Of a stretch of DNA of 64,000 nt, positions 15,090 to 63,267 are shown piece after piece (the stretch's first letter is position 1; each line of letters starts with the position of its first letter). The stretch is taken from assembly GCA_035602155.1 (NCBI GenBank), contig DATNMW010000096.1, positions 41,319 through 105,318 of the forward strand, in the 5' to 3' direction. The DNA is from Bryobacteraceae bacterium. GTDB lineage: Bacteria > Acidobacteriota > Terriglobia > Bryobacterales > Bryobacteraceae. Both the position numbers and the translations under genes were made by a program. Below the pieces are notes generated by a model, which ran no database searches, was not told where the DNA came from, and was given only the letters and a program-made list of their open reading frames with translations.

Positions 15090-16562
15090 ATGCCCAACCC
15101 ACCGGTTACCCGTTACGACCTGCCGGCGCTGGCCCGCCAGGAGATGATCGAGCACGGCTTCGCTCCCGACTTTTCGCCGGAAGTGGCGCGCCAGGTGGCG
15201 GCCCTGCGCGCGCATGCCTCGCCGCCGGATTCGAGCGGCACGATGCGCGATCTGCGCGGCCTGCTTTGGTCGTCGATCGACAACGACACGTCGCGCGATC
15301 TGGATCAGATCGAAGTCGCCGAGCGCCTGGCCAACGGCAACATTCGCATCCGCATCGGCATCGCGGACGTGGATACCGACGTACCCAAGGGATCGCCGAT
15401 CGATGCGCATGCCGCCGCGAATTGCACCACCGTATACACCGGCGTGAAAAACTTTCCCATGCTGCCGGACGATCTGTCCACGGATCTCACGTCGCTGAAC
15501 GAACATGCCGACCGGCTGTCCGTGGTGGTGGAACTGACAGTGGCGGCGGACGGCTCCGTGCAGGATGGCACGGCCTACCGCGCGATCGCGCGCAACGCCG
15601 CGCAGTTGGCCTACAGTTCCGTCGGCCCGTGGCTGGAAGGGAAGGCCGATCCCCCCGCCAAGTTGGCGGCGTCCGAGGATCTGCAGGCGCAGCTCCGTTT
15701 GCAGGACGAAGCCGCGCAGAAGCTGCGCGCGCAACGCCACCGCCTGGGTGCGCTCGACCTGGACCGCAGCGAAACGGAGCCGATCCTTTCCGACGGCCGC
15801 GTGACCGGGATCAAACCGCGCTTTCGCAATCGGGCTTCGGAGCTGATCGAGGATTTCATGGTGGCGGCGAACGGCGTGATCGCGCGGATGCTGCGGGACC
15901 ACCACATCGCATCCCTCCGCCGCGTGGTGAAGATTCCCGAGCGCTGGGACCGCATCGTGGAACTGGCGGCGCGTACGGGCGATATCCTGCCCGGCGATCC
16001 GGATTCGGGCGCGCTAAACATATACCTGACAAAGCGGCGGAACGAAGACCCCGTGCATTACTCCGATCTGTCACTGGCGGTGGTGAAGCTGATGGGGCCG
16101 GGCGAGTATGTGCTGGAGCGTCCCGGTGAGGCCGCGGTCGGGCACTTCGCGCTGGCCGTTCACGATTACACCCACTCGACGGCGCCCAACCGGCGCTTCG
16201 CCGATCTGGTGTCGCAGCGCCTGGTAAAAGCGGTGCTCGCCAAGCAACCTTCGCCCTACGGGGACGCCGAGTTGGATGGCGTGGCCCGCAATTGCACGCT
16301 GCGGGAAGACGCCGAGCGCAAGGTCGCACGCGCCATGAATAAACGCATCGCCGCGGTCGCGATGCACGGCCGTATCGGCGAAATCTTCCCGGCAGTGGTC
16401 ACCGGAGTTACGCCGAAGGGCACGTTCGTGCGGGCCTTGTCGCCGCCGGTGGAAGGACGGCTGATGCGCGGCGAGCATGGCTTGGACGTGGGCGACCAGA
16501 TTAGAGTGAAGCTGTTGAACACAGACCCGGCGCGCGGGTTCATCGATTTTGGCAGGTTATAA
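15090..16562 (+). CDS. RNB-domain 3-prime-to-5-prime exoribonuclease (RNase II/R family) with C-terminal S1-like domain
   Basis: 490-aa ORF. RNB-type motifs: IDNDTSRDLDQ, YT..KNFPMLP, HFALAVHDYTHSTAPNRRFADLVSQR. C-terminal S1-like VVTGVTPKGTFVRAL...GDQIRVKL. Confidence 0.85.
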   Translation: MPNPPVTRYDLPALARQEMIEHGFAPDFSPEVARQVAALRAHASPPDSSGTMRDLRGLLWSSIDNDTSRDLDQIEVAERLANGNIRIRIGIADVDTDVPKGSPIDAHAAANCTTVYTGVKNFPMLPDDLSTDLTSLNEHADRLSVVVELTVAADGSVQDGTAYRAIARNAAQLAYSSVGPWLEGKADPPAKLAASEDLQAQLRLQDEAAQKLRAQRHRLGALDLDRSETEPILSDGRVTGIKPRFRNRASELIEDFMVAANGVIARMLRDHHIASLRRVVKIPERWDRIVELAARTGDILPGDPDSGALNIYLTKRRNEDPVHYSDLSLAVVKLMGPGEYVLERPGEAAVGHFALAVHDYTHSTAPNRRFADLVSQRLVKAVLAKQPSPYGDAELDGVARNCTLREDAERKVARAMNKRIAAVAMHGRIGEIFPAVVTGVTPKGTFVRALSPPVEGRLMRGEHGLDVGDQIRVKLLNTDPARGFIDFGRL

Positions 16563-16743
16563 AGAGGGCAACTGAGCCGTGCCGACGCTCGGTCAACTGC
16601 CTTCTAAGCAGCGGGTCGCCGGTTCTACCCCAAACCTGCCTGTAGACGATTTGTAGCTGTAGATTTCCTCCAAGTTCAACAAGCCGCCTGACCTGGACCT
16701 GCAATCCCCCCATCAGCCGTCGGATCCACGACTCTGGATCCAC

Positions 16744-17180
16744 TTGACACCCTGCTGTCAGAGTTTTTTGGGCGACACAAAGAATACCCATGCAGCCGAA
16801 GCCGCGCTGAAGATTGACTACTCTCTTAAGAACGTCTTGATTCCACCGATTAAAAGTGTATACAAGCAGCAGTGTGATGATGGCCTGGTCCTGCAACAAA
16901 CGGTCGGCATCGATGTGAGCTCAGCGATGGCCGTTCGCAGCGTCATCCGCAACAATAATGATCTGGTCTGGGTGGGAAGAGCACCGAATATTGCCGCGAA
17001 GTTGAGCGCCAATTCGAGATACTTACACGATACATAACGAAGACAGTCTACGATCGGCTGAACGAATCAAGCAGATACGGGGGCGATCCACGACGTGTTA
17101 TGTCGGAAGCCTGCACCTGGAACACCGGTGCTGAATTCGGCGTTCGCGATCTATATCGTACTGGTTGGTGGTTGAAACCA
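16744..17180 (+). pseudogene. Relic of a class III nucleotidyl cyclase (cyclase homology domain), C-terminal half only, frameshifted
   Basis: SFLGDTKNTHAAEAALKI...TVGIDVSSAMAVR...DLVWVGRAPNIAAKLSA resembles the GD...A...G(I/V)..G......WvG..vN.AA+L cyclase pattern. It continues in another frame as YITKTVYDRLNESS...YRTGWW. No N-terminal half or start is present. Confidence 0.4.
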
Positions 17181-17387
17181 TAGTTCCTGCTGCGGTGTCA
17201 TCCTTGGAAACTAGACGGTCGATCGACATAGTTACATTTCGTACTGGCCTGCTGCTGTCTCGAAAATGAAAGGCGGGAGTGGCCGCTGGTCTGGCTTGAC
17301 AAGGCAAGCCCGCTTGTTATGATAGGCAGAGAAGTCTGGAATTCGGACTTCCGGACCATTAACCACACCAGTTCGTTATGAACACAA

Positions 17388-17718
17388 CCGCCAAAATCCA
17401 GCACAAGGGCCAGGTGACCATCCCCACCGGCATCATTCGCCAGGCCGCCTGTCCAAAGGCGACTTGGTGAAATTTGATTTCCAGCGCGGCAAGATCGTTA
17501 TCACGCCGAAGATCGTCATCGACCGCTCCACCTTCCCTACCGCCGATGACGACTACACACCCGAGCGGCGCAAGATCAATGATGCCCGCCTCAAAGAAGC
17601 CCGCAAAGGCCCCTACTACGGCCCCTTTGACACCGCCGCGGAGATGATCAGCCACATGAAAGGCCAGCTCAAGAAGAGAGCTGTTGCCAGGAAAACTAAA
17701 TCCGTCCGCGCTCGATGA
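17388..17718 (+). pseudogene. AbrB/MazE/SpoVT-family antitoxin, disrupted by a 1-nt frameshift
   Basis: MNTTAKIQHKGQVTIPTGIIRQA stops after ...CPKATW*. The +1 frame continues (G)LSKGDLVKFDFQRGKIVITPK... to 17718 (track ORF 17464..17718). Confidence 0.6.
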
Positions 17719-17940
17719 AGATCACTTACAGCAAGAAAGCACTGGAGGCCATCGACGACGCTCCACCGGCAGTCAAGAAAGCCTTTTTCAAGCAGAGCCG
17801 CCTTTCTAGCCAATGACCTTCACCACCGCTCCTTGCGGGCCAAGAAGTACGACGAATCTCAAGATCTCTGGCAGGCCCGCGTCAACAAGGATTGGCGCTT
17901 TTACTTTACCATCATCGATGACACCTACCAGATTGAATAG
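17715..17940 (+). pseudogene. RelE/ParE-superfamily toxin, disrupted by a frameshift
   Basis: The ATG at 17715 overlaps the antitoxin stop (ATGA). MKITYSKKALEAIDDAPPAVKKAFFKQ terminates early. Another frame continues AFLANDLHHRSLRAKKYDESQDLWQARVNKDWRFYFTIIDDTYQIE* to 17940. Confidence 0.55.
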
Positions 17941-18169
17941 GTCATTCCGCATCCTAAATAGCCACGGTCCGCCAACAACAACGTCGCCCAATTGGGGCGG
18001 CGTTGTTTGTTCTTGTCCGTGGAAACCCAGACGATTCACCCCACTGAGCAGCTCGACTAGTTTTGGTTTCGGGCGAGAGCGATCACGTCGCCATCCCAGG
18101 CATGAAACGCACCTTATCAAATCCAAACGTGAAACGCCATTCGGAAACCTCAGACGTGGCTTTCCGTGG

Positions 18170-18776
18170 TGGTGGAACTGGCCTCGCGTACGGGCGATAG
18201 CCTGCCCGGCGATCCGGATTCGGGCGCGCTCAACATATATCTGATGAAGCGGCGGACCGAAGACCCGTGCATTACTCCGATCTGTCGCTGGCGGTGGTGA
18301 AGCTGATGGGGCCGGGCGAGTATGTGCTGGAGCGCCCCGGGGAGGCCGCGGTCGGGCACTTCGTCCTGGCCGTTCACGATTACACCCACTCGACGGCGCC
18401 CAACCGGCGCTTCGCCGATCTGGTGTCGCAGCGCCTGGCAAAAAGCGGTGCTCGCCAAGCAACCTTCGCCCTCCGGGGACGCCGAGTTGGATGGCGTGGC
18501 CCGCAATTGCACGTTGCGGGAGGACGCCGAGCGCAAGGTCGCGAGGGCTATGAACAAGCGGATCGCGGCCGTCGCCATGCACAGCCGCATTGGCGAGGTC
18601 TTTCCGGAGGTGGTCACCGGGGTTACGCCGAAAGGCACGTTCGTGCGAGCCTTGTCGCCGCCCGTAGAAGGACGGCTGATGCGCGGCGAACATGGGTTGG
18701 ACGTGGGCGACCAGATCCGCGTAAAGCTGTTGAATACCGACCCGCGCGCGGCTTCACCGACTTCGGCCGGTCGTAG
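18170..18776 (+). pseudogene. Diverged duplicate of the 3-prime ~600 bp of the RNB exoribonuclease gene
   Basis: Collinear with 15957..16562, roughly nine of ten positions identical by eye. It has at least three 1-nt indels and splits into track ORFs 18267..18776 and 18322..18834. The homology ends at the former stop codon. Confidence 0.9.
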
Positions 18777-18830
18777 GCCCCGATTCCTGCCATGCCCGTC
18801 TCAAAATCACTCAGGAGAGAAAATTCCGTC

Positions 18831-19868: not shown

Positions 19869-19940
19869 TCACACTCTGCGAATGAGCCACACAACCAACA
19901 CAATCACAATAACAGTTCCGAGCAATCCTAAGCCGAGCAT
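19869..19940 (-). CDS. Candidate 23-aa hydrophobic peptide MLGLGLLGTVIVIVLVVWLIRRV
   Basis: ATG preceded by AAAGGAGAA at about 6-nt spacing. Single TM helix with a basic C-terminus. Lies in an otherwise non-coding ~0.9-kb gap. Confidence 0.3.
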   Translation of the reverse strand: MLGLGLLGTVIVIVLVVWLIRRV

Positions 19941-20742: not shown

Positions 20743-20765
20743 CGGGTCATAGTGGAGGTGGCCCC

Positions 20766-32062: not shown

Positions 32063-32419
32063 GGGGAATTGGGTACTCCAAAAATCGCAGGCGAGACAAA
32101 TCTCAACAACAAATATCCAAGCCCGGCTCCATGCCAGGGGAGCGTCCGGTTTGTCGCGCATTGCCGATCGATCACCAGGTCAGCGGTGCGGATGTTCAGG
32201 CTACCGTTGTCGATACCGGGTTACCGGAGGGGGTCTGTGGAAAGGCCGAACGCCCGGCAAGGACAGGTCAGGAAACCTGCCCAATGCCGCAAACCTATAT
32301 GTACCACAGTCGGGGTATGCTTTGCACCTTAAATCGCGAAGCCGGAAGTTAGCATGCGTCGGCATGCCGCCGGGGCGAATTCCGCATATTTCCCCAATTC
32401 AGAAATGGGGCATGATTGC

Positions 32420-32496
32420 GTAGTGGGTCAATTTGCTTTGTGGGGCAGGTTGGCAACCTGCGGGCCGATTGTCAATCGGCCCAGTTTGCGCCGATT
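32420..32496 (+). repeat. Solo left end (77 nt) of the GTAGTGGGTCA-type inverted-repeat element, containing two REP-like hairpins
   Basis: Identical over 77 nt to 58549..58625. Internal palindromes are caggttggcaacctg and ggccgattgtcaatcggcc. No matching right end was found nearby. Confidence 0.7.
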
Positions 32497-32598
32497 CCCA
32501 TATTCCGGCTCCGCAGACCGGCGGAGGTATCCGCGGCAGGAGGCTGCGGCAATGGGCTAAAGCCAGCGCAGTCCAGGGAACAGGCCACGACGCCTCTC

Positions 32599-34744: not shown

Positions 34745-35365
34745 ATGGCGAATCAAGGATCGGATCGACGGGCGGTGTTGCAGATGCTTGCCAAGGCCGC
34801 CGCTGTCAGCCAGTTCCCGGGCTTCAGCCGCTGGGCATTTGGCCAACAGCATGAGCATGCGGGCAATGCCGTTCCGCCGCCGCGCGTAGCGAACTACCAG
34901 CCATCGTATTTTTCGGCTTCCGAATATCGCACAATCGATATTTTGACCGGCCTGATCATTCCCCCGGACGAAAGCCCCGGCGCCCAAGAGGCGGGCGTTA
35001 GTGAGTTCATCGACTTCCTGGCGGCGCATGGCGAAGAAGAGATCCGGCAGCCGATGCGCGACGGCCTGAAATGGCTGGATGCTACCGCGAAAAAGAGCCA
35101 TGGCGCAGGCTTTGCCGGACTCTCACTCGAGCGGCAAACCGAGATTCTGAAGAGGGTCGCATATCGGGATAGCCCGGCGCAAGGAGACATCGAGGGGCGA
35201 GCGTTCTTCCGCCTGATTCGGCGCTACACGGTGATGGGCTACTACACCAGCCGCGCCGGGCTGAGTGAGTTGGATTATCCCGGTTTGCGGCTTTATACGG
35301 AGTCTCCGGCTTGTCCGCATACCGGCGATCCGGAACACCGGCGCCTTCCGCCGCCGAGAGTCTGA
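34745..35365 (+). CDS. Gluconate 2-dehydrogenase subunit 3 family protein (Tat signal)
   Basis: MANQGSDRRAVLQMLAKAAAVSQFPGF. The motif ...GAQEAGVSEFIDF... is typical of the small subunit partnering GMC-type dehydrogenases. Confidence 0.7.
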   Translation: MANQGSDRRAVLQMLAKAAAVSQFPGFSRWAFGQQHEHAGNAVPPPRVANYQPSYFSASEYRTIDILTGLIIPPDESPGAQEAGVSEFIDFLAAHGEEEIRQPMRDGLKWLDATAKKSHGAGFAGLSLERQTEILKRVAYRDSPAQGDIEGRAFFRLIRRYTVMGYYTSRAGLSELDYPGLRLYTESPACPHTGDPEHRRLPPPRV

Positions 35366-35366
35366 A

Positions 35367-37028
35367 ATGCAAAATCGGATCTACGACGTAATTGTGATTG
35401 GGACAGGCGCGGGCGGCGGGATGGCCATTCACACCCTTTGCCAGGCGGGCGCGAAGGTTTGCGCACTCAACGCCAGCCGCCGCCTGAATCCGGGCACGGA
35501 CTTCCGCAACCATCGACAACCCTACGATATGCCGTTCCGCGGGTTTGGCGAGCCGGCCAAGCGCAAGAAATGGATCGGCTACATGGATAACGAGTACACC
35601 GAGGGCATTTGGGAGCACGAGATCGTTTTCACCACGGCTCCGGGAACCGAATGGACTTGGCGGCGCTGCTTCGCCGTTGGCGGCAAAACCAACTTCTGGG
35701 GCCGGTCGTCGGCGCGTTTCAGCGATATCGATTTCCGCGCGGCCAGCCGCGACGGATATGATGTCGATTGGCCCATTACGTACGCGGAAATCGCGCCTTA
35801 CTACAGCCGCGTGGAGCGCATGATTGGTGTCGCGAGCACGGTTCAGAACCGCCCCAGCAATCCGGACGGCGAGTATCTGCCGCCGATGAACTTCCGCTGC
35901 ATCGATCGCATTCTCGAGAGCGGCGCGCGCAAGGTCGGCATTCCGTATCTGCCCGACCGCATCGCGCAGCTTACTGTGCCGCATGCCGGTCACCCTTCTT
36001 GTCATTACTGCGCGAATTGCACGGAAGGCTGCGACGTGGGCGCATTTTTCTCAACGCCGTGGTTCTTTCTGCCCGCGGCGGAGAAGAGCGGCAACCTGGA
36101 TCTGCGCACCAATGCGCTCTGCAAGAATATTTTGGTGGATGAGAATGGCCGCGCGAAAGGCGTGGCTTATATCGATCGGAATACCAGGCAAGAGTTCGAG
36201 GTGTATGGCAAGAACGTGGTGCTGGCGGCATCGTGCGTGGAGTCCGCGCGCATTGTTTTGAATTCGAAGTCGCGTCATTGGCCGGATGGAATCGCCAATT
36301 CGAGCGGGCAAGCCGGCCGCAACCTGTGCGACCATCTGTACGGCACCACGGCGCGCGGCTATTTTCCGCAACTGCTGGGGCAGCCGAGCTTTCCCGATAA
36401 TGTCTCTTCGAGTACGGTGGCCTGGATGCCGCGCTGGCAGAATCTGGACAACCCGCGCCAGGAGAAGTTCATTCGCGGCTATTCGGTTTACCCGGACGGC
36501 GGGTGCGGCGAGTTTCCCTGGTACTTCGACGAGATCGAAGGTTTTGGCCGCGATTACAAGCGCCAGATCAAGCGGCGCTATCCTACGCCGGTCAGTTTTT
36601 ACATTCAGGCGCCCACGCAGCGCAGCGATTCGAACTATGTGGATATCGATCCGGCGGTGAAGGACGCTTACGGCATCCCGGCCGCGCGGCTGCATTTTGC
36701 ATGGGATAAGAATACTCTGCTGATGTGGGAACACGGCAAGCATTCCTGCGAGCAATTGCTGCGTGCCAGCGGCGCGGAATATTTGGGGGCCGCGGCGGAG
36801 CCGGATACGCCGGGCACCAGTTTGCATGAGACGGGAACTCTGCGCATGGGGAACGATCCCAAGCGGTTTGTGACGAATCGCTTCGGACAGGCGCACGACG
36901 TTCCTAATTTATACGTGTGCGATGCCAGCGTGTTTCCGAATTGCACGGATAAAACTACTACGATTTCGATTCTCGCGTTTACGCTGCGTACGGCGGAGTA
37001 TCTGGTGGAGAATTTGAAGAAGGGTTAG
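35367..37028 (+). CDS. GMC-family FAD-dependent oxidoreductase
   Basis: Start MQNRIYDVIVIGTGAGGG (Rossmann GxGxxG). C-terminal LHETGTLRMG...NLYVCDASVFP. The ATG follows the upstream gene stop by 1 nt. Confidence 0.9.
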   Translation: MQNRIYDVIVIGTGAGGGMAIHTLCQAGAKVCALNASRRLNPGTDFRNHRQPYDMPFRGFGEPAKRKKWIGYMDNEYTEGIWEHEIVFTTAPGTEWTWRRCFAVGGKTNFWGRSSARFSDIDFRAASRDGYDVDWPITYAEIAPYYSRVERMIGVASTVQNRPSNPDGEYLPPMNFRCIDRILESGARKVGIPYLPDRIAQLTVPHAGHPSCHYCANCTEGCDVGAFFSTPWFFLPAAEKSGNLDLRTNALCKNILVDENGRAKGVAYIDRNTRQEFEVYGKNVVLAASCVESARIVLNSKSRHWPDGIANSSGQAGRNLCDHLYGTTARGYFPQLLGQPSFPDNVSSSTVAWMPRWQNLDNPRQEKFIRGYSVYPDGGCGEFPWYFDEIEGFGRDYKRQIKRRYPTPVSFYIQAPTQRSDSNYVDIDPAVKDAYGIPAARLHFAWDKNTLLMWEHGKHSCEQLLRASGAEYLGAAAEPDTPGTSLHETGTLRMGNDPKRFVTNRFGQAHDVPNLYVCDASVFPNCTDKTTTISILAFTLRTAEYLVENLKKG

Positions 37029-37132
37029 GGAGCGGGATGTCGGCCGGTGCGATCCTGTGTCTCTCACATCCCCTGTTCCGAAGCGCGCCCGCGTCTCGGC
37101 TACCGCAATCGGCGTGGCGGCGGCCGTGATGC
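36912..37132 (+). repeat. Direct repeat copy 1: GMC gene 3-prime end plus the start of the downstream lysozyme-like gene
   Basis: Collinear with 40853..41128. It is diverged and lacks a ~54-nt block present in copy 2. The homology ends near 37132, where AT-richer island DNA begins. Confidence 0.85.
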
Positions 37133-37572
37133 AGTCCAAGGATAAGCACAGCTCCAGCATATGGACTTGCCTCTCGCCGTTCGGGAAGATGGCTATCTGA
37201 CTTATAAGGATTAGTCCGGGCTCCCTTTCAGAACAATTGGCTGCAATTTTGTTCCCGTGCATGGATGCTGAAGGGCGTAGTCGAGAAAATCAAAGACAAC
37301 GTAACGATCGCTGCGGACGCGATCACATAGCAAAGGAGGGTGTCCGGGGCGATGTCCACACCAGGACGATTGACGGGTACTGGGGCCCTCTGAAGCGGGC
37401 ATTATAGGCAGCCTCCACCAAGCCTGCACCGTTACCTGTCCGAATTAGGAGCAGCGCTCCCGTATGCGGAATTGACCGGAAAACTATCGGACGGCGAATC
37501 CAACAGGACTAGGGGTATCCCGGCAATAATACAGCACCAGTGCCCTTGCCGATTTTTGTTAACGTCCGGTGC

Positions 37573-37612
37573 TTGACAGGGGCCTGCCCATTGTTTATAT
37601 TAATGTTAACAT
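37573..37612 (+). promoter_or_regulatory. Near-consensus sigma-70-type promoter plus 10-bp palindrome upstream of the HigB/Gp49-like toxin gene
   Basis: TTGACA (37573..37578), a 17-nt spacer, then TATATT (37596..37601). Palindrome atgttaacat at 37603..37612, 15 nt before the ORF start at 37627. Confidence 0.5.
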
Positions 37613-37626
37613 GAAGGCGTGGCTGA

Positions 37627-38016
37627 ATGCGGAGACCGCTCGCTTATAACGGACATCGATACGGGATAGCATATGCGGTTTGCCTGGACAGGACTTCGCC
37701 CGGAGAAGAATTTTACGATGCCTTGATGGACACAGACAAGGCGAAGCTCAATAAGCTCTTTGAATACTTGGGGGATCACGGCGCGATTCGTAATGAAGAG
37801 AAGTTCAAGAAAGTGTCGGAGACATTTTTCGAGTTCAAGAGCCATCAAATCCGCATGCCGTGTTACTTCAGGACCGATGCCATTGTGGTAATAACACACG
37901 GTTTTATTAAGAAGAAAGACAAGATGCCGCCCGCTGAACTTAGGCGCGCGGAACGTATCCGAGATGAGGACAATGAGAATGAGCAACAAGAAGGCGAACG
38001 CCGCGACGATTCATAG
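37627..38016 (+). CDS. Gp49-like / HigB-type RelE-superfamily toxin
   Basis: 129-aa ORF. ...SPGEEFYDAL...KAKLNKLFEYLGDHG...FKKVSETFFEFKSHQIRMPCYF...VVITHGFIKKKDKMPPAELRRAERI is the phage Gp49/DUF891 pattern. The toxin lies upstream of the antitoxin, as in higBA. Confidence 0.7.
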   Translation: MRRPLAYNGHRYGIAYAVCLDRTSPGEEFYDALMDTDKAKLNKLFEYLGDHGAIRNEEKFKKVSETFFEFKSHQIRMPCYFRTDAIVVITHGFIKKKDKMPPAELRRAERIRDEDNENEQQEGERRDDS

Positions 38017-38398
38017 CGACAAGTTCCAGGAGTTTATCGCCGACGACAAGAGGCGTCTCCTCTACGAAAGAGAATCTCTGGCTTTTGACGCCGCAGAAAT
38101 GATCGCGCATCTGATGACCGGGAGGAAAATGAACAAGGCTCAACTTGCGCGTGCAATCGGCAAGTCGAGAGCTTATGTGACTCAACTCCTTAGCGGATCG
38201 CGAAATATGACGATCCACACGCTGGCAGACCTGGGACTCGCTCTCGGATATCGTTTTGAGTTGAAGGCCCGCGAGTGCAAGGCCGACAATACCCATACTG
38301 AAGCGCAGGTTGAAGTTAGTCGAACGTCTCCCATTGCGATCGTGACGCATCATCCAGCGAGGCCGCGAGAAACCTCCGCCATACGACCGGGTGAATAG
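37964..38398 (+). CDS. XRE-family HTH antitoxin (HigA-like)
   Basis: The HTH is MNKAQLARAIGKSRAYVTQLLSGSRNMTIHTLADLGLALG. It overlaps the toxin gene. An alternative start is at MSNKK (37979). Confidence 0.75.
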   Translation: MRTMRMSNKKANAATIHSDKFQEFIADDKRRLLYERESLAFDAAEMIAHLMTGRKMNKAQLARAIGKSRAYVTQLLSGSRNMTIHTLADLGLALGYRFELKARECKADNTHTEAQVEVSRTSPIAIVTHHPARPRETSAIRPGE

Positions 38399-39233
38399 AA
38401 ACAATCGAGGAAGATAGGTCCCGCGAGCGTGGTGCGTACCCCTGAAATACTGACGATGGCGCAGTCGTGGCGCCCTTCGGCCACTGCGCGGCTGGCTGCG
38501 TAAGAATCTGCGGGTTATCTCGACGCCACTTCCATACGTCGATGAGGAGCTTCGCGGTCTCGCTTATCATTGCTTTCGTGCTGTCCATCAAGCCCCCAAG
38601 AGTCTCAACGGCGTCCTCGGCAAGAACCAACGTTTGAAGCGGATCTCGGGTTGACGTCATCGGTGTCTCTCGCCAGACCTCAACGTCAGACATGCTCGGG
38701 TTTCTGGGAAGATAGGTCAGTCGGCGGGCGCGCAACACCTGATCTCCATCCGGGCCAAGTATCTGAGGTAGCTTCGGAACAAACTGGCCGCTTTCAAGCC
38801 TACGTCCGCGGTGAACGAGCATGTTTCTGAAATCCAGCGCCCATTGCAGCCATCCATCCGGGCCGACAGATGCGATAACTTCGCTGAATTTCCTATAGAA
38901 GTCGGCCTGCACCTTCTCTCCGTCAGTCGTACCTTGGCCGATCTTTGTGAAGAATTCCCGAATCTTTCTGCCGAGATCGGCAGTAAGAATCGGCGTAGGA
39001 ATCGCAATCACGCCGATGATCGCGCCCGCCAGACAGTCCAATGCCGCGGAGAGCGCTCGCGCCATGCCGGCGATGTGCATGACGACCATTTCACGGCCGA
39101 GTTCTTCCAGTGCATTGCGGGGGCGCGGTAAAACCACATCAAACTGCCCGTCACGGTTTTGCACGATATCTGCATACCGCTCGCTATCACGTTCGGCACA
39201 ATCCTGATATTCAAGCCTGCAGCGCAGCCTCAA
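38316..39233 (-). CDS. Hypothetical protein with a possible HEPN-type R-x4-H motif
   Basis: 305-aa ORF with a TTG start. The motif LDFRNMLVHRG matches RNxxxH seen in HEPN/Abi RNases. Nothing else is recognisable. Confidence 0.4.
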   Translation of the reverse strand: MRLRCRLEYQDCAERDSERYADIVQNRDGQFDVVLPRPRNALEELGREMVVMHIAGMARALSAALDCLAGAIIGVIAIPTPILTADLGRKIREFFTKIGQGTTDGEKVQADFYRKFSEVIASVGPDGWLQWALDFRNMLVHRGRRLESGQFVPKLPQILGPDGDQVLRARRLTYLPRNPSMSDVEVWRETPMTSTRDPLQTLVLAEDAVETLGGLMDSTKAMISETAKLLIDVWKWRRDNPQILTQPAAQWPKGATTAPSSVFQGYAPRSRDLSSSIVSIHPVVWRRFLAASLDDASRSQWETFD

Positions 39234-39591: not shown

Positions 39592-39971
39592 TCTCCGCCC
39601 GCGTTGCTCTCCGGCATCCGCTCGGGATATGCTTATTGTATTTTCGCTGGACCGGCGGCGCGACCGAAGCTTCAGTGAAGGTCATTGGCGAGGCCCGGCG
39701 CTCGATTCCTGCTGACGGCACACAGCTTCATCTTAAGGACCTCGGGGCGCCGCTGGTTCCTGGCAAACTCTTTCGCCGTGTACGGCTCGCGCCAGTTGAT
39801 GTGAATGGCCTCTAACGGAATGTGGGTCTTTCCCGAGTGAATAGTCGGCAATCCGGAAGTAGTCGACAAGGAGGGGTCGTCGGCATCTCGAAGGAGTGGC
39901 TCATAGCGTCCAAACCCGCGCGGAATGGGTGCTCTTTCAAGGCGCCGTGAACATTGTCTCCATGACCCGTC

Positions 39972-40289
39972 CTAGCTTGCCAACTCCTCAAACTGCGTGA
40001 TCCGCACTTTTCGATCTTTGAACACCGCGCGGATCTCGAGCTGGCCGCCCATTGCTTCAATGTAATCGGCCAGGGTGCTGACGCAGATGTCGGACCGGTG
40101 CTCAATCTTCGAAACCTCTCCCTGATTGACGCCGAGAATCTCGGCGAGTTGCAGTTGCGTCATGTGCTGCGCCTTGCGCAATTGATCGAGCGGCATTGCG
40201 GCCAGACTCTTCCGGAACCGGCTCTCAATCCTCCGCTGCCGCTCAGGCGGCATCGCTTCCAGCAATTCACGAAAATTGCGAGTGGGCAT
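39972..40289 (-). CDS. XRE-family HTH antitoxin (HigA-like)
   Basis: The HTH is MTQLQLAEILGVNQGEVSKIEHRSDICVSTLADYIEAMGG. The stop of the upstream toxin remnant abuts its start. Confidence 0.8.
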   Translation of the reverse strand: MPTRNFRELLEAMPPERQRRIESRFRKSLAAMPLDQLRKAQHMTQLQLAEILGVNQGEVSKIEHRSDICVSTLADYIEAMGGQLEIRAVFKDRKVRITQFEELAS

Positions 40290-40636
40290 TAAATGCTTCC
40301 CTCCTTCTTGAGCTCAAGCAGGTGTCGTTCAAAAAGCCGGTCTGCGACCGGCACAAACTTCTCATACCAGCGGTCGTCGCCGGTTTTCTCGCCCCCGATC
40401 AAGAGGATGGCCGAGCGGAGCGGGTTGAATGCATACAGCGTTCGCAGCGGCCTCCCAGCGCTCTGGGTCCGCCACTCGCGCATCTGCGCATAACGTGAAC
40501 TGCCGACTTTTGAGCTGTGCGGGAACCGAGGGCGGGACCGAATTCGATGAGATGCCGAACGGAATGCGCCACATCATCCTGTTGTTCCTCGGAGAGGGCG
40601 TCCCACCAATTCCAGAATTCATCGGTGAACTCGACT
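40289..40636 (-). pseudogene. HigB/Gp49-like RelE-superfamily toxin, multiply frameshifted
   Basis: One frame encodes VEFTDEFWNWWDALSEEQQDDVAHSVRHLIEFGPALG. Another encodes FPHSSKVGSSRYAQMREWRTQSAGRPLRTLYAFNPLRSAILLIGGEKTGDDRWYE. The N-terminal start is separated by an in-frame stop. Confidence 0.6.
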
Positions 40637-40760
40637 TACACACCTACAGTATGCCATATACAGAATAATCCCAGGGACCGGGGGCGCTACGCCACGGGGT
40701 CGAGAAACCGATCCACTTGACCGACGCGCTTCTGAACGCTGTATCCTCAAATCGTCACAC

Positions 40761-40850
40761 ATGAACAAGCTGTTAGCGCTCAACCGCGGCGAAATTGCGG
40801 TCCGCATCCTGCGCGCGGCCAATGAACTGGGCCTGCGCACCGTGGCCGTA
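40761..40850 (+). pseudogene. 5-prime fragment (~30 codons) of a biotin carboxylase / pyruvate carboxylase gene
   Basis: MNKLLALNRGEIAVRILRAANELGLRTVAV is the canonical biotin-carboxylase N-terminus (ANRGEIA.R..RA). It is joined directly to the GMC 3-prime fragment at ~40851. Confidence 0.65.
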
Positions 40851-40965
40851 TGTCTGCGATGCCGGCGTGTTCCCGAACTGCACGGATAAGACTACTACGA
40901 TTTCGATCCTCGCGTTCACGCGGCGTACGGCGAAGTATCCGGTGGAGAGTTTGAAGAAGGGTCAG
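40851..40965 (+). pseudogene. Diverged duplicate of the 3-prime end of the GMC oxidoreductase gene
   Basis: Encodes VCDAGVFPNCTDKTTTISILAFTRRTAKYPVESLKKG versus VCDASVFPNCTDKTTTISILAFTLRTAEYLVENLKKG in the intact gene. The former stop TAG is CAG here. Confidence 0.85.
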
Positions 40966-40993
40966 GGAGCGGGATGCCCGCCGGTGCTATCCT

Positions 40994-41557
40994 GTGTCTC
41001 TGACATCCCCAGTACCGAAGCGCGCCCGCGGCCGGCGATCGAACTCGTCACGAAGTCCGGCGAGGCGCTTGGCACTGCTTTTCCTCTCGGCTACGGCAAT
41101 CGGCGTGGCCGTGGTCGTGCTGCAGGCCCAATACACCGTGACGCTGCAATCGCCGTTCCGCATTCGATTCCAATGGCCTGTGGTCATTGCCCCGCGCATA
41201 TCGGCGGAGGAGGCAGGCGCGGCCCAGGCGGATCAATTGGGCCGGAGGTTGACGGCGTACCAGCAATACGCCTGCAACAAATTCGGACCGGCATGCCGCG
41301 TCGCGTTAGCGGTGCAACGCGCCGAAAACCCGCGCGGCGCCTGCGAGATCTATCATTACAACTCCGACGGGACCCTGGATTGGGGCTATTTCCAGATCAA
41401 CACGGTGCACTTGAAGCGGGCCGGAGTGAACCTGCGGGACCTGCTGGACTGCAAAGCGAACATCGACTTCGCGTACAAGCTGTACATGGAGAGGGGCTTT
41501 GTACCGTGGACCACGTTCAATAGCGGCGCTTACCGGCAATTCCTGCGAGGATTCTGA
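40994..41557 (+). CDS. Lysozyme-like / lytic transglycosylase-like protein with N-terminal membrane anchor
   Basis: 187-aa ORF. TM segment LALLFLSATAIGVAVVVL. The motif DGTLDWGYFQINTVHL is the glycosidase-like catalytic region. Its first ~35 codons are duplicated and truncated at 37037..37132. Confidence 0.65.
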   Translation: MSLTSPVPKRARGRRSNSSRSPARRLALLFLSATAIGVAVVVLQAQYTVTLQSPFRIRFQWPVVIAPRISAEEAGAAQADQLGRRLTAYQQYACNKFGPACRVALAVQRAENPRGACEIYHYNSDGTLDWGYFQINTVHLKRAGVNLRDLLDCKANIDFAYKLYMERGFVPWTTFNSGAYRQFLRGF

Positions 41558-51365: not shown

Positions 51366-51388
51366 CCGATTCCTCATCGCGGTTGTCG

Positions 51389-51553
51389 TCAGTAACCGGC
51401 CGCGATATAACCGCCCATGGCCGCGAAACAGGCCGCCGCGCTGTTGGTGGAGCACGCACAATTGTGGGCGCTCGACGTGCTGTTGCCTACCTCTGCCATT
51501 GGACCGCTGTTCTGGTCGTCCGGCAACATTTGAAGTGCTAATACTCGATTCAT
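51389..51553 (-). CDS. lanA1: Class III lanthipeptide precursor peptide 1 (54 aa)
   Basis: MNRVLALQMLPDDQNSGPMAEVGNSTSSAHNCACSTNSAAACFAAMGGYIAAGY. RBS GGAGAA lies 5 nt upstream of the ATG. Leader VLALQ motif. The core has two S-x2-S-x3-C motifs. Confidence 0.85.
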   Translation of the reverse strand: MNRVLALQMLPDDQNSGPMAEVGNSTSSAHNCACSTNSAAACFAAMGGYIAAGY

Positions 51554-51583
51554 AATCGTTCTCCTTAGTCTTATCTGGGAAGA

Positions 51584-51627: not shown

Positions 51628-51651
51628 CCAATTTGCGGCTAACGGCCGTCG

Positions 51652-51816
51652 TTAATAACCGGCGGCGATGAAGCCGCCCATGGCCGCAAAACATGCCGCG
51701 GCGCTGTTGGTGGAGCAAGCGCAATTGTGGTCGCTCGACGTGCTGTTGGCCAGCTCCGCCATTGGGCCGCTGTTCTGGTCGTCCGCCAACATCTGAAGTG
51801 CTAATACTCGATTCAT
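51652..51816 (-). CDS. lanA2: Class III lanthipeptide precursor peptide 2 (54 aa)
   Basis: MNRVLALQMLADDQNSGPMAELANSTSSDHNCACSTNSAAACFAAMGGFIAAGY. RBS GGAGAA. Differs from lanA1 at 5 of 54 residues. The tandem unit period is 263 nt. Confidence 0.85.
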   Translation of the reverse strand: MNRVLALQMLADDQNSGPMAELANSTSSDHNCACSTNSAAACFAAMGGFIAAGY

Positions 51817-51842
51817 AATAGTTCTCCTTGTTTCTTCTTTTA

Positions 51843-58290: not shown

Positions 58291-59275
58291 CTAAGACTGG
58301 CCCCGCGGCCGGTACCCCGGGCGCGAGCGCACCAAGTACTTCTTCCCCACATCGGTCACAATCTCGACGGGAATCTTGCGGAGGCCTTCGCTCGGATTGG
58401 GCTGCGGATAGTAAGTCACCGTGTAGGAGTTACCTAAATCCTCGCGGATGAATTCAAAAGCCTCCACCTGCTTCTGCCAGATCTTGGCCCAATAGGCTTT
58501 GCCGCCGGTGCGCGTGGCGATGTGCCGGAAGACGCCGCTCGAAATGGAGTAGTGGGTCAATTTGCTTTGTGGGGCAGGTTGGCAACCTGCGGGCCGATTG
58601 TCAATCGGCCCAGTTTGCGCCGATTTCCAATCGGCGCGCAGGAGCATCCTGTCTTCATGGCCCTGCGGGCCACCAAATGCGATCAAAACCCTTGGAGGGC
58701 GGCAGGATTGCCCAATGCCACTTAGTTTTCGAGCGCTGTGCGAAACCAAAACATTTTCAAGCACTTATGTCTCTCCGCAGAAATAGGGTGACGCTCGGAC
58801 ACTTTGGCGAACCCCACGCCAATCGCTTGCTTCAATCGGGGTAGCCGGGATCCGCGGGTGCGCAATGACTTGCACTCATACTCAAGAAATAAGTGGCATT
58901 GGGCAGGATTGCCCGCCCTCCAAGGGTGGCTTCGACGGTGCCCCGCAAACTGCAACTGACCCACTACCCGAAACGGGGTCCTTGTTGACCTCGTTAGTGG
59001 AGATCATGTAGATGGGAATGCCTTCGTCCTCGGCCACCGCGCGGACGTCGTCGGGCGCGACCATGCTGGCATTGTCCGGCCCGTTCGAGAAGACGATCGC
59101 CACCTTGCGGCCACGCACTTTGGCCGCGTCGCGCAGCGTCAGCAGCAAGGTGTTGTAGACCGCCGTATCGTCTCCTGCCACGGATTTGCGCAACCCGCCG
59201 ATGGCATCGCCGCGGTCGCGCGCGAGCCTGGCAGCCCGGGAAAGACTGCGGCTGAGGAAGTTGACCGCTGTTCCA
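58291..59275 (-). pseudogene. Diverged duplicate of the 3-prime half of the VWA gene (copy of ~62266..62830), interrupted by a 421-bp element
   Basis: Collinear by eye with the intact gene: ...AIVFSNGPDNASMVAPDDVRAVAEDEGIPIYMISTNEVNKDP... and ...FRHIATRTGGKAYWAKIWQKQVEAFEFIREDLGNSYTVTYYPQPNPSEGLRKIPVEIVTDVGKKYLVRSRPGYRPRG. There is no 5-prime half. Confidence 0.85.
58548..58968. mobile_element. MITE-like non-autonomous element (421 bp) with terminal inverted repeats and 8-bp target duplication
   Basis: The left end is aGTAGTGGGTCAATTTGC and the right end is GCAACTGACCCACTACc. The flanks are cgaaatgg / cgaaacgg. The uninterrupted paralog at 62514..62530 reads ...gctcgaaatgggatcc.... There is no ORF of transposase size. 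An internal 36-nt inverted pair lies at 58689..58724 and 58890..58925. Confidence 0.75.
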
Positions 59276-59482
59276 GTGTTGGACGCGGCGAACTGGCATT
59301 GACGCTAGGACCGGTGAACCGAGGTGTAAGGGCGGACGCTACCTTTATAGGCGGACTGCTACTGGCCGGCGGGTGCCTGGCGGTGGTCGGAGTCTAGAGC
59401 GAATGGATGCCAGTGCGCGCGGCGATGCGGGCCATCGGGAACTGCCGACGGCCTAAAAGGCGACAGAATGGGCGGGAGGGTT

Positions 59483-60172
59483 ATGCCAATCGTCCTAACC
59501 GAAATACCGGCAGCGGCTGTTCCCCACGTTCCGCCCCGAAAGCGATGGACTCGCGCCGAGTGCGCAACTCTGGAGGCGTCCGGTCTCCTGGATCAGGAAA
59601 GCCTGGAGCTTGTGGAAGGGGAGTTGATCGGCAAAACGGAGAAGAAACGCCCGCACGTGGACTCCTTCACCCTGCTACAGGAGTGGTTGGCGCAAGTCTT
59701 TGGATTTCGCTCAGTGAACGTAGAGGCGCCCATTGACGTGGCCCCTGAGGACAATCCTACCAACGAACCGGTGCCCGATCTTATCGTCCTACCGCAAGAG
59801 CGGCCGCGTTTCACATCCAACCCGAGGGCGCTGGATTTGCGGCTCGGAGTTGAGATAGCCGATACCAGCCTTAGCTTCGATCTCAAGGTTAAAGTCCCGC
59901 TTTACGCGAGGGCCGGGGTGCGCGAATATTGGGTCCTGGACGTGGCTGGCCACCGGTTGCTGGTGCACAGGAATCCGCAATCCGTAACGTATATGGACGT
60001 GGCCGCTTATAGCGCACGAGAGCGTGTCGCCGCTTGCTCCGCCGCGGGAACAGTTCCGCGTGGCGGATGCCTTCCAAGTCCTATAGCGGCGGTCGCCCGT
60101 ATCCGCCGTTGCCCCCGAAACGCGAACGCTAAACAGCACCGATCTGAAGCCAAATCCAATCGCGCGGCATGA
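59483..60172 (+). pseudogene. Uma2-family (DUF820) endonuclease, C-terminus altered by a 2-nt deletion
   Basis: MPIVLTEIPAAAVPHVPPRKRWTRAECATLEASGLLDQESLELVEGELI...PDLIVL...EIADTSLSFDLKVKVPLYARAGVREYWVLDV. After ~60014 the frame departs from copy 2 (agcgcacgag versus agcgagcacgag) and reads through to 60172. Confidence 0.7.
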
Positions 60173-60366
60173 TAAACAAGAACGTGATGTCGCCATAGAG
60201 GCTACGGGCTCAAGAGCACCTGAGGAAAGCCGAAACTGGCCCAAAACCGAAGGTCGCGCCGACCGCGCGGCTGCCAGGAAATACTGCTCCGCAGTTCCCG
60301 CGAGTTGGGTGTCTCCGGTGGAGGCATGCGGCCCGAAAAAAGGCGATAGAATAGGCGGGAGGGGTC

Positions 60367-60972
60367 ATGCCAATCGCCCTAACCGAAATACCGGCGCCGG
60401 TTGCTCCGCCGGATCCGCCTCGCAAGCGATGGACTCGCGCGGAGTGCGCCACTTTGGAGGCATCCGGTCTCCTGGATCAGGAGAGCCTGGAGCTTGTAGA
60501 AGGGGAATTGATCAGCAAGATGGGGAAGAAACGGCCTCACGTGAATTCATTCACCCGGCTGCAAGAGTGGCTGGTGCAAGTCTTCGGATGGGGCTTTGTG
60601 AATGCAGAGGCGCCCATTGATGTAGCCCCTGAGGACAACCCCACCAACGAGCCGGTACCCGACCTCATCGTGCTGCGGCAAGATGACTCGCATTTCACAT
60701 CGAACCCGCAACCCCAGGATCTGCGGCTCGTCGTGGAGATAGCCGATACCAGCCTTAGCTTCGATCTCAAGGTTAAGGCCGCGCTTTACGCGAGGGCCGG
60801 TGTGATCGAATATTGGGTCCTCGACGTAGCCGGCCGTCGGCTGCTGGTCCACCGGAATCCGCAATCGGGAAAGTATGCGGACGTGGCTGCTTATAGCGAG
60901 CACGAGAGCGTGTCGCCGCTGGCTGCGCCGGAGGAACAGTTCCGCGTGGCGGATGCCTTCCAAGTCCTTTAG
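60367..60972 (+). CDS. Uma2-family (DUF820) endonuclease
   Basis: 201-aa ORF with the PD-(D/E)xK-like core PDLIVL...VVEIADTSLSFDLKVKAALYARAGVIEYWVLDV. It is a tandem paralog of the upstream copy. Confidence 0.85.
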   Translation: MPIALTEIPAPVAPPDPPRKRWTRAECATLEASGLLDQESLELVEGELISKMGKKRPHVNSFTRLQEWLVQVFGWGFVNAEAPIDVAPEDNPTNEPVPDLIVLRQDDSHFTSNPQPQDLRLVVEIADTSLSFDLKVKAALYARAGVIEYWVLDVAGRRLLVHRNPQSGKYADVAAYSEHESVSPLAAPEEQFRVADAFQVL

Positions 60973-61122
60973 GAACGTTCGCCGGAATCCGCGGCACGGC
61001 CTCCGTCCGCCGCGAACGCTAAACTGCCCGATCTTGAAGCCCAAATTCCAATGGCGCCGGCATGATAAACCAGAGCGTGACGTAGCCAGAAAGAATCCCG
61101 CTTTGCCCCAAAACAACGCCAC

Positions 61123-62184
61123 CTACCGGCCAAGCTCCGTTACCATTAGTCCCATGAAATTATAGATCACTGTCTCGGTCCAAGCAGCACCCGGCGCGGC
61201 CGGGTGGGTCAATTGAAAGACGGTGCCGCATCCCCCGCCGAAGCCCATGTAGTCGCAGGGCTCGCTACCATCGTAAAATGTGCTGCCGTAGAGTACGCCT
61301 CCGGGCCCTACCGTCAAGGTTGCTCGTGAGCCGCAACCATCAGGGGTTCCGGCGAAACTGTATATTGTCGTTCCTGTCCAAGCGCCTCCGGACGCCGGGA
61401 GGGGTAAGCTCGTACACTGAGCCGCAACCTCCTGTCCCTACATCGTACGTGAAATAAGTTGTACCGTATAAGGATCGACCATCCGAGACCACACCAGCAT
61501 ATGGACTAAGCCCGATACCTGCGTCCCAGAAATTCAACAGGGTGGATTCTGTCCAGCTACCGCCCGGACTCGCGGGCGGCGTGAGCATGAAGGCGGCGCC
61601 ACCGCTCTTCCCATCAGACGAAATGTGGCTATTAAATGTCGTACCGAAAACATTCCCGCTCTCGCCGACACTCACGCCTGCGTACAAGGTGTTTGGAGCA
61701 TTGAGATTGGTTCCGAAGTCAGCGAAACTGTAGAGCGTCGTTTGGGTCCAGGAACCACCCGCAACTGTTTGGGCCGTCAACTCAAAAGACCGTTCCTCCG
61801 CCACCGCTCCCACCTGTCTCGGTTGTGCCGAAGAGCGATCCTTTGCTGCTAAACGTCACGCCCGCATTCGGCGCACTGCCATCAGCCCCGGTGAAGCTAT
61901 GAATTATTGTTTCGGCCCAAGGCCTTTGGCTTGAGGGAGTCAAAGCGAAGACCGTCCCGCAATTGAAACTACTGCACGAGTTGGCTCCGCCGACTAACAG
62001 TGCCATAGATCGTGCCGTTCTTCCCATCCGTTACGTTCCCGTGGGGAGTAGAGCCGTCGCTGCCGCCTTTGAAACTATAAAGGATGGCATAGGTAGGGTT
62101 TTGTGCAGCGCACGAGAGTGCTGCGATTATCGCCAGAGCAAGCAAACTCCCCGATTGCGACGTCGCTTGTAGTCTTTTGTTCAT
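61123..62184 (-). pseudogene. GloVer (Gloeo_Verruco) repeat protein, fragmented by at least three frameshifts
   Basis: Signal peptide MNKRLQATSQSGSLLALAIIAALSCAAQ. The repeated G.(L/V)(Y/F)G(T/S)T...GG..G.G(T/S)V(F/Y).L(T)P motif is spread over four track ORFs in different frames (61969..62202, 61782..62027, 61340..61813, 61123..61317). Confidence 0.7.
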
Positions 62185-62265
62185 TGCTCGGCCTTTCTGC
62201 AAATTTGGCGGCGTCGAGGTGTGCCCCTGCGGATACCTTCGCTCCGACCCCGCGGAGACGCTCGT

Positions 62266-63267
62266 CTAGACCCCGCCCCGAGGCCGGTACCCGGGCCTGG
62301 ACCGCACGCGGTACTTCTTCCCCACATCGGTCACAATCTCGACCGCGATCTTGCGGAAGCCCTCGTTCGGATTGGGCTGCGGATAGTAAGTCACCGTATA
62401 AGAATTGCCTAAATCCTCGCGGATGGATTCAAAAGCCTCCACCTGCTTCTGCCAGGTCTTGGCCCAATAAGCCTTGCCGCCGGTGCGCGTGGCGATGCGC
62501 CGGAAGACGCCGCTCGAAATGGGATCCTTGTTGACCTCGTTGGTGGAGATCACGTAGATGGGAATGCCTTCGTCCTCGGCCACCGCGCGCACATCGTCGG
62601 GCGCCACCATGCTGGCGTTGTCCGGCCCGTTGGAGAAGACGATTACCACCTTGCGGCCGGGCACTTTGGCCGCATCGCGCAACGTCAGCAACAAGGCGTT
62701 GTAGAGCGCCGTATCGTCTCCCGCTACCGACTTGCGCAGCCCGCCGATGGCGTCGCCGCGGTCGCGCGTCAGGGTAGCGGCGCGGGAGAGATTGCGGCTG
62801 AAGGTGTAGACCGCCACGGAATCCGCGCGGTCCAGGCCGCGCACGAAATCGGCGATGGCGTCTTCGGCGTACACGAAACCGCGGTACATGAAGTTGCTGG
62901 TGTCGAACAGCACGAAGACGTTGGTGCCCACGAAGGCGTCGCTGTGGAGGTCGATGCCCGGGTTGCCGGGCGCCTCGGCGGGCTCGCCGGCCACCAGCGG
63001 ACGCGTGCTGCCATCCTCCAACACCTGCACGGGAGGCTTGGTGCCCTCCGCGAAGGTGGCCATCTTTTGCAGGACGGTGTCTTCGTAGATTTTGAAATCC
63101 GTATTCTTCAGGCCGTTGATATAGCGGTTATGGCTGTCGGTGACGGTGAAGCTGAGCACTACCATATCCACTTTCACGCGGAATACCGGGCGCTGCGCAT
63201 CCTGCGCCTTCAGCAAAGCCGTGCCCGCTGCCGCTCCTAGAAAACCCCGACGGGTTATGAGACGCAT
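62266..63267 (-). CDS. VWA-domain protein (TIGR03436-like, acidobacterial VWFA-related) with Tat-like signal
   Basis: 333-aa ORF. MRLITRRGFLGAAAGTALL. MIDAS-like VFVLFDTSNFM. ...VVIVFSNGPDNAS.... Confidence 0.85.
   Translation of the reverse strand: MRLITRRGFLGAAAGTALLKAQDAQRPVFRVKVDMVVLSFTVTDSHNRYINGLKNTDFKIYEDTVLQKMATFAEGTKPPVQVLEDGSTRPLVAGEPAEAPGNPGIDLHSDAFVGTNVFVLFDTSNFMYRGFVYAEDAIADFVRGLDRADSVAVYTFSRNLSRAATLTRDRGDAIGGLRKSVAGDDTALYNALLLTLRDAAKVPGRKVVIVFSNGPDNASMVAPDDVRAVAEDEGIPIYVISTNEVNKDPISSGVFRRIATRTGGKAYWAKTWQKQVEAFESIREDLGNSYTVTYYPQPNPNEGFRKIAVEIVTDVGKKYRVRSRPGYRPRGGV

Follow-up and report, generated by a model that had tools for sequence, protein, structure and literature searches.

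Gene-end direct repeats around small inserts in a Bryobacteraceae genome look like scars of homology-anchored integration

A 64,000-nucleotide stretch of a Bryobacteraceae genome (G000:C96:41319-105318; the whole stretch is termed the window, and positions are counted from its first letter) contains three loci that share one layout, an intact gene, an insert, and an outer direct copy of the end of that gene. The genes encode an RNase II/R-type exoribonuclease (RNB, locus 1), a GMC-family oxidoreductase (locus 2), and a VWA-domain protein (locus 3). About fifty genes in the genome look like they have been scarred in this way, by a process that is known and that appears to be unusually frequent here. 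The scars are attributed, with moderate confidence, to homology-anchored integration, either of the Campbell type or resembling homology-facilitated illegitimate recombination (HFIR), of short chromosomal pieces that would have come from relatives about 5–15% diverged. Features that fit homology-anchored insertion are the direct anchor repeats found at all three loci, a two-lineage signature in the differences between the copies at locus 1 and genome-wide, and an illegitimate join at locus 2. The genome, G000, is a 7.23-Mb metagenome-assembled genome (MAG) of an uncultured soil acidobacterium of the Bryobacterales, in 438 contigs (N50 24 kb), which is 88.6% complete with 4.1% contamination.

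The three repeat pairs had been noticed in a preliminary description of the window, and BLAST self-alignment and gapped alignments recovered all of them where that description had placed them. It had called the repeats long (about 220–600 bp) and clearly diverged, which agrees with the measured lengths of 226–601 bp and identities of 87.5–90.7%. The inserts feature a GC content of 53–58%, compared with about 61% in the surroundings. Pfam searches for integrase, resolvase, and rve-type transposase domains found none in the three inserts, as the description had also stated. Its argument that the repeats are not transposon target duplications is upheld by their length, by a divergence of about 10%, and by inserts that carry neither terminal repeats nor a transposase. 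The scar repeats contrast in this respect with a miniature inverted-repeat transposable element (MITE) inside the outer copy at locus 3, which has an ordinary 9-bp target duplication.

Recurrence across the genome

The preliminary description had proposed a genome-wide self-alignment, and this alignment revealed further gene-end direct repeats. A match was defined as at least 150 bp at 80% identity or more, less than 8 kb apart on one contig. About 106 local matches are direct and 1 is inverted, which is a pattern far beyond chance, and merging left 104 pairs. There are 61 direct matches 1–8 kb apart, and none was found 8–20 kb apart, though 44–58% of the opportunity to detect such matches is retained over that range. 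The pairs were classified against the best-scoring open reading frames (ORFs), and 58 were classifiable. In 51 of these 58 pairs the fragment flanks a longer intact gene on its outer side (p = 2e-9), and 7 have it on the wrong side. The rest of the merged pairs are whole-gene tandem paralogues, within-gene repeats, or non-coding.

The 51 scar pairs correspond to a density of 7.1 per Mb. The preliminary description had emphasized 3' ends, and this is correct as a bias of 2:1 and incorrect as a rule, since 34 scars are located at 3' ends, with the fragment downstream of the stop codon, and 17 at 5' ends, with the fragment upstream of the start codon (p = 0.02). The repeats are about 130 to 1100 bp long and lack a common core, the inserts measure 0.3–9 kb, and insert plus repeat does not exceed about 9 kb. 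The identity between the two copies is 80–98%, with a median of about 90%. Frameshifts or premature stops occur in 36 of the 51 fragments and the outer copy at locus 3 holds the MITE, so the fragments are relics and not live alleles. The long-contig relative G010 features the same scar type, with the same codon-position bias and frameshifts. The longest identical run within any pair is 136 nt; recent events are undercounted because pairs that share at least 141 identical bases cannot be assembled at k=141.

Three further repeats were observed alongside the census. An 88%-identical tandem duplication in the window (51380-51566 and 51643-51829) consists of twin lanthipeptide precursor genes, which are ordinary paralogues and not a gene-end scar. 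A direct repeat of about 100 bp is present at 9131-9232 and 10207-10310, with 88% identity and a spacing of 1.08 kb. Contig G000:C25 (3174 bp) has ends that are identical over 135 bp. It would be a circle of 3.04 kb or else an insert between two identical repeats, and could represent an intermediate or an event that is very recent. A DtxR-family regulator gene spans the joint, and the contig also carries a HigA-like antitoxin gene and a cyclase fragment.

The GMC locus and its pyruvate-carboxylase junction

The junction that is resolved to the base is found at locus 2. The intact GMC oxidoreductase gene (35265-37028, plus strand, 587 aa) contains the Pfam domains GMC_oxred_N and GMC_oxred_C, and its orthologues are 81–91% identical at the nucleotide level. 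Repeat copy A (36912-37137, plus strand) takes in the final 117 nt of the GMC gene, then the spacer and the beginning of a downstream ORF, which is truncated, so that the repeat extends about 110 nt past the gene end. Copy B (40849-41128, plus strand) consists of a dead GMC 3' fragment, with CAG in place of the stop codon TAG, and then the beginning of the downstream ORF, here intact. The two copies (about 226 and 280 bp) are 87.5% identical, with one 46-bp indel. The intact ORF beyond them (40994-41557) gave only a weak SLT_3 lysozyme-like match under the Pfam cut-off.

The 87 nt that precede copy B (40762-40848, plus strand) encode MNKLLALNRGEIAVRILRAANELGLRTVA, which is the start of pyruvate carboxylase. 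This 29-codon 5' fragment is fused directly to the GMC fragment. Comparison with four relatives places the junction at 40848|40849, where codon 29 of pyruvate carboxylase is interrupted and the sequence continues into GMC through a 2-bp GT microhomology. The pyruvate-carboxylase gene is present in one copy per genome of the genus, and its start block was matched in 20 of 20 same-genus genomes searched. In G005, a sister species, the complete gene shares a contig with GMC and begins 2.27 kb downstream of it. The codon-29 junction and the linkage in G005 together suggest that the block between the locus 2 repeats is a piece of a relative's chromosome with random ends, one within GMC and the other within pyruvate carboxylase. 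These comparisons speak against an element whose termini are defined. A pyruvate-carboxylase orthologue was not found in the G000 assembly, which contains only paralogues with 47%-identical biotin-carboxylase domains; the gene may have been lost or left unassembled. A tRNA or small RNA was also considered for a 107-nt block before copy B that is kept in every relative, and searches with ARAGORN and Rfam found none; the block is the pyruvate-carboxylase 5' end.

The insert of locus 2 (37138-40761, GC 53–58%, unstranded) carries two toxin-antitoxin pairs recognized with Pfam, and parts of it are found elsewhere in relatives at 87–90% identity. A Gp49/HigB-like toxin gene (37627-38016) is accompanied by its helix-turn-helix (HTH) partner (37964-38398), and an HTH antitoxin gene (39972-40289, minus strand) by a short Gp49-like toxin gene (40289-40483, minus strand). 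The insert also contains two ORFs without a known family (38316-39233 and 39211-39591, minus strand).

The RNB locus

The RNB gene (15090-16562, plus strand, 490 aa) features RNB and S1 domains (Pfam RNB, 1.5e-75; RNase_II_C_S1), and orthologues are present in all same-genus genomes at 76–87% nucleotide identity. Gapped alignment identified copy A as the functional 3' end of this gene, its last 606 nt (15957-16562, plus strand), and copy B as a headless 3' relic (18172-18776, plus strand) with three 1-nt frameshifts, all of which sit in homopolymer runs. In the BLAST self-alignment and the gapped alignment, 15957-16557 pairs with 18172-18771 over 601 bp (602 columns) at 90.7% identity. This homology has an abrupt start inside the RNB gene and runs as far as the stop codon, and there is none upstream of copy B. 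The first 11 nt at the repeat edge are identical and mismatches follow directly.

The insert between the copies (16563-18171, 1.6 kb, GC 54%, unstranded) contains only weak short ORFs without a Pfam match. One part of it, 17330-17960, is multi-copy, with scattered matches at 66–84% identity in many related genomes; a Pfam search of this part gave no match, and it is probably the relic of a multi-copy gene family, to judge from that distribution. On the other side of the RNB gene, a related MAG (locus L014) has a homologue of gene 33-2132 directly upstream of RNB, and in the window 12.7 kb of extra genes (2133-14858) lie between the two.

Assembly and strain mixing

The scars could in principle be an artefact of assembly or binning, in which two strains or species about 90% identical were laid in series, or in which the scars of several strains were pooled in one bin; this is considered improbable. 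The genome is a MEGAHIT assembly at k=141 with the contig number and contamination given above, and several of its contigs share exact 141-bp ends, which are graph branch points. The copy identities resemble the per-gene spread of two genomes at about 90% average nucleotide identity, and the scar density is about threefold that of two long-contig relatives. However, a de Bruijn join needs at least k-1 identical bases, and the junctions between insert and outer copy offer 2 bp at locus 2 or an abrupt start at locus 1, which could not be traversed even at k=21. Frameshifts and stops in most of the fragments, and a MITE in one of them, are unexpected for live alleles of a second strain. A bias of the scars toward contig ends was tested and rejected (median distance 4.4 kb, compared with 5.4 kb expected). 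Four scars are located within one unbroken 107-kb contig, the same scar type is found in the long-contig genome G010, and G000 contains zero N bases, so there is no scaffold gap at the junctions.

Codon positions, trees, and the VWA locus

The differences between the copies of a pair are concentrated at third codon positions, with a share of 61–63% genome-wide and 72% at locus 1. Between live RNB, GMC, and VWA orthologues of other species this share is 65–90%, and the neutral expectation is 33%. With 15 outgroup sequences, the changes at locus 1 were assigned to the branches of the two copies. The copy B branch carries 6/5/21 changes at the three codon positions (p = 5e-4 against equal shares), and the copy A branch carries 2/3/12. 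The changes on its own branch indicate that locus 1 copy B diverged inside a working gene and was beheaded only recently. In the tree of locus 1, copies A and B are sisters with 100/99 support, from which it follows that the other lineage would be closer than any species sampled.

Locus 3 features an intact VWA gene on the minus strand (62266-63267, 333 aa, Pfam VWA_2), whose orthologues are 78–90% identical at the nucleotide level. Copy A (62275-62814, minus strand) is the functional 3' half of the gene. Copy B (58300-59268, minus strand) is a decayed 3' fragment in two pieces, 59268-58969 and 58547-58300, which align with 62814-62275 over 548 bp at 88–90% identity. Within copy B is the 419-bp MITE (58549-58967), whose terminal inverted repeats (GTAGTGGGTCAATTTGCTTTGTGGGGCA) measure about 28 bp and whose 9-bp target duplication reads CGAAATGGN. 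A related MITE end is present at 32415-32500, at least 13 partial copies are located on other contigs, and some copies occur in the relatives G004 and G018. The copy A branch carries 3/0/17 changes by codon position and the copy B branch 12/12/17. This near-neutral branch, together with the MITE, fits an old relic. Copies A and B and the species G009 form an unresolved trichotomy in the tree of this locus. Trees were tried as a means to tell the foreign from the resident copy and gave no polarity, with sisters at locus 1 and the trichotomy at locus 3.

The insert of locus 3 (59269-62265, unstranded) contains two tandem genes for Uma2-family nucleases on the plus strand (59468-60172 and 60367-60972; Pfam Uma2, 6e-20 and 3e-26 for the pair), which are 83% identical to each other, and two short minus-strand ORFs (61123-61317 and 61340-61813). 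The first Uma2 gene has weak coding statistics and may be decaying. The stop codon of the VWA gene is adjoined by a Uma2 gene in G020 and by a Uma2 remnant in G010, which suggests that the arrangement of VWA gene and insert is native in relatives. The DNA beyond copy B was found in no relative compared. Linkage in relatives is thus seen for VWA and Uma2 in G020 and G010 and for GMC and pyruvate carboxylase in G005, but the edge between gene and insert at locus 2 truncates another ORF, and the insert of locus 1 is linked to RNB in no relative.

Ordinary segmental duplication within the genome, in which a gene or gene end was duplicated in tandem and later indels left a fragment, is a further explanation of the pairs and is judged to be quite unlikely. 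Intact tandem paralogues that are 80–83% identical and less than 500 bp apart do exist in this genome (the Uma2 pair and those on C208, C89, and C268), the locus 1 copies are sister sequences, and the branch of the locus 3 fragment is close to neutral. Against this, a fragment that was dead from birth should change equally at the three codon positions, which is not what is seen at locus 1 or genome-wide; one selected and one neutral lineage would give an estimated third-position share of about 0.44, compared with the 0.62 observed. The insert is unique and was never duplicated together with the gene end. The truncated pairs (85–97% identical, 1–8 kb apart) form a population separate from the intact tandem paralogues (80–83%, less than 0.5 kb), and about 50 independent recent truncations of long-kept paralogues would be unparsimonious. 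The preliminary description had named duplication plus deletion as its alternative; codon positions contradict this at locus 1, and at locus 3 it may apply.

Insert cargo and recombinases

Cargo was annotated with Pfam for the ORFs of the window and for a sample of 10 insert ORFs, among 129 insert ORFs. The sampled cargo on other contigs includes ParE, RelE, MazF, Fic/Doc, DUF433, DUF5615, a DarT1-associated NADAR antitoxin, a C5 DNA methylase, and a type III CRISPR RAMP protein. The last is located in a 3'-type scar (G000:C381:24235-29049), whose insert holds the RAMP gene (Pfam RAMPs, 9.6e-17) and neighbouring ORFs; the case suggests that parts of CRISPR-Cas loci travel in such inserts. The mean GC content of the inserts is 58.8%, compared with 61.7% for the genome.

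Whole-genome Pfam searches with PF00589, PF00239, and PF00665 revealed one truncated recombinase in about 58 inserts. It belongs to the 5'-type scar of the alaS gene, which precedes the window on the same contig (G000:C96:23342-27494). A frameshifted alaS start is located there 2.3 kb upstream of the intact gene, and the insert (G000:C96:24588-26888) terminates in a piece of the C-terminus of a tyrosine recombinase, the sole recombinase remnant in any insert. Active versions of the inserts that bear an integrase were sought in the same searches, which gave this truncated fragment only.

These results bear on decayed site-specific integrative elements, which would have inserted at gene ends with a replacement end and later lost their recombinase. 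This is the least probable of the rivals: the topology is that of elements that enter gene 3' ends and restore them, 3' ends exceed 5' ends, and the alaS insert retains a recombinase fragment, but 5' ends account for 17 of the 51 cases, the repeats lack a common core and those of locus 1 diverge after 11 nt, about 57 of 58 inserts gave no integrase, resolvase, or rve match, the locus 2 insert ends inside a housekeeping gene at what would be a random breakpoint and not an element terminus, and the inserts measure only 0.3–9 kb.

Proposed mechanism

The preliminary description had offered two mechanisms, Campbell-type integration from related strains and a class of integrative elements that target 3' ends and have lost their recombinase. 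The first fits the many further cases at 3' and 5' gene ends, the direct repeats, the ceiling of about 9 kb, the orthologue-like divergence, and the illegitimate join at locus 2 between two genes that are neighbours in a sister species. The second is not supported, given the third of scars at 5' ends, the missing core, and the single recombinase fragment in about 58 inserts.

Under homology-anchored integration, a fragment made up of an end of a conserved gene (X) and adjoining variable DNA (Y) would enter the cell and recombine through X with the resident copy of the gene, and its other end would be closed by an illegitimate join. The fragment might circularize first and then integrate by a single crossover, as in the Campbell type, or it might be joined directly to the chromosome, as in HFIR. 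Either route would leave an intact gene, Y, and a headless copy of the gene end (X') that decays. Selection would retain one intact copy of the gene, whichever of the two was resident, and the outer edge of the repeat would be a random breakpoint. Conserved genes border variable islets at their stop or start codons, and the inner edge would therefore fall there. Y would usually be a toxin-antitoxin or defence islet, and toxin-antitoxin cargo may be over-represented because it penalizes loss of the insert through the flanking direct repeats.

Several observations weigh against this reading. G000 is a MAG assembled with MEGAHIT at k=141, and its junctions are known from the assembly alone. Neither an empty site nor a donor sequence was found, and the closest relatives available for comparison are other species, at 84–91% nucleotide identity. 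Relatives share neither the insert nor the downstream DNA at locus 1; among the surroundings of RNB genes in 80 genome and 80 metagenome loci, nothing was closer than 87% nucleotide identity and no flanks were shared, and an identical RNB protein is not on record. Same-genus DNA searches at all three loci revealed no relative with matching junctions. Because the copies at locus 1 are sisters, an origin within the genome is countered there by codon positions and not by the tree, and the near-neutral branch of copy B at locus 3 is compatible with an old in-place duplication. Both edges of the locus 2 insert look non-native, with a truncated downstream ORF at one and truncated pyruvate carboxylase at the other, so that more than one event, or a donor that was already scarred, is needed. 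A total of 1.6 Mb from G010 and G008 holds about 2–3 clear scars where 11 are expected (p about 0.004), and the excess in G000 may be biological or may come from several strains pooled in one bin. ComEC and DprA are present, but they are near universal and also occur in most control genomes, so that they argue neither for nor against natural competence. Finally, HFIR events in the literature are mostly insertions accompanied by deletion and not duplications.

A wider proposal is put forward tentatively and is more doubtful than homology-anchored integration itself. The lineage may run a frequent, size-capped uptake (up to about 9 kb) of chromosome pieces from sister species, which would be inserted at gene ends by one-sided homology. 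The vehicle would be natural transformation or a particle resembling a gene-transfer agent. This would be the main route by which toxin-antitoxin and defence islets arrive, with addiction modules stabilizing the inserts.

Comparison with known systems

The kind of scar, a homology-anchored insertion, is already known. HFIR and Campbell integration in natural transformation are known from work that PMC5361080 and PMC2884548 cite (de Vries and Wackernagel 2002; Prudhomme et al. 2002; Meier and Wackernagel 2003). As here, a homologous anchor on one side is combined with a join at a few bp of microhomology on the other, and the insert comes without a recombinase. The substrate is short linear DNA, and a Campbell crossover leaves direct repeats of the anchor around the insert. 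The published events differ in that they come from laboratory crosses at marked loci, whereas the scars of G000 are natural, duplicate the anchor about 50 times, and would involve donors about 10% diverged. PMC5361080 has also proposed HFIR for displaced ends of effector and Rhs genes, and PMC2884548 for the replacement of segments in E. coli, S. aureus, and S. pyogenes.

Sequential displacement of 3' ends has been described at Rhs, CdiA, and type VI effector-immunity loci (Jackson et al. 2009; Kirchberger et al. 2017, PMC5361080). These loci also feature an intact gene followed by orphan 3' fragments and cargo without an integrase, and HFIR has been proposed for them. However, their genes are polymorphic toxin genes, and the displaced ends are unrelated variants kept with immunity genes. 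In G000, ordinary genes are affected (RNB, GMC, VWA, alaS), with fragments that are homologous to the live ends (88–91% identity at the three loci of the window), and 5' ends are involved too. In integrative elements whose targets are 3' ends of protein or tRNA genes, as in the scars, the gene end next to the cargo is restored and the original end is displaced to the far side. These elements differ from the scars in having their own recombinase, of the tyrosine or serine type, and an att core that is short and defined; neither feature was found here. Transformation-induced merodiploidy arises by alternative pairing and unequal exchange without a transposase, as described by Johnston et al. 2013 (PMC3784515). 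The likeness is that an incoming fragment with partial homology gives a duplication by unequal exchange; the difference is that merodiploidy consists of 100–900 kb tandem duplications between insertion sequence repeats, not kilobase inserts between homeologous gene ends. What is new in G000 is the occurrence of about 50 scars in one genome, at both gene ends, with a ceiling of about 9 kb, an orthologue-like divergence, and one junction resolved to the base.

Significance

Homology-anchored illegitimate insertion has been shown mainly in laboratory crosses of a few competent bacteria, and in genomes it has been invoked for Rhs and type VI effector loci. If the scars are real and homology-anchored integration is the correct reading, the genome of one soil acidobacterium records about fifty such events at ordinary genes, and if HFIR was the route, dozens of HFIR events, which elsewhere have been seen mostly in the laboratory. 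The scars would then supply parameters for the process: an anchor of 130–1100 bp, a total length of up to about 9 kb, donors 5–15% diverged, and cargo that is mainly toxin-antitoxin or defence genes. There is also a practical warning for the use of short-read MAGs, in which recent events are undercounted, since copies that share at least 141 identical bases collapse or break contigs. Local direct repeats of gene ends with orthologue-like divergence would be a signature that can be searched for, and the process would represent a recombinase-free route by which small defence islets move between related species of large-genome soil bacteria.

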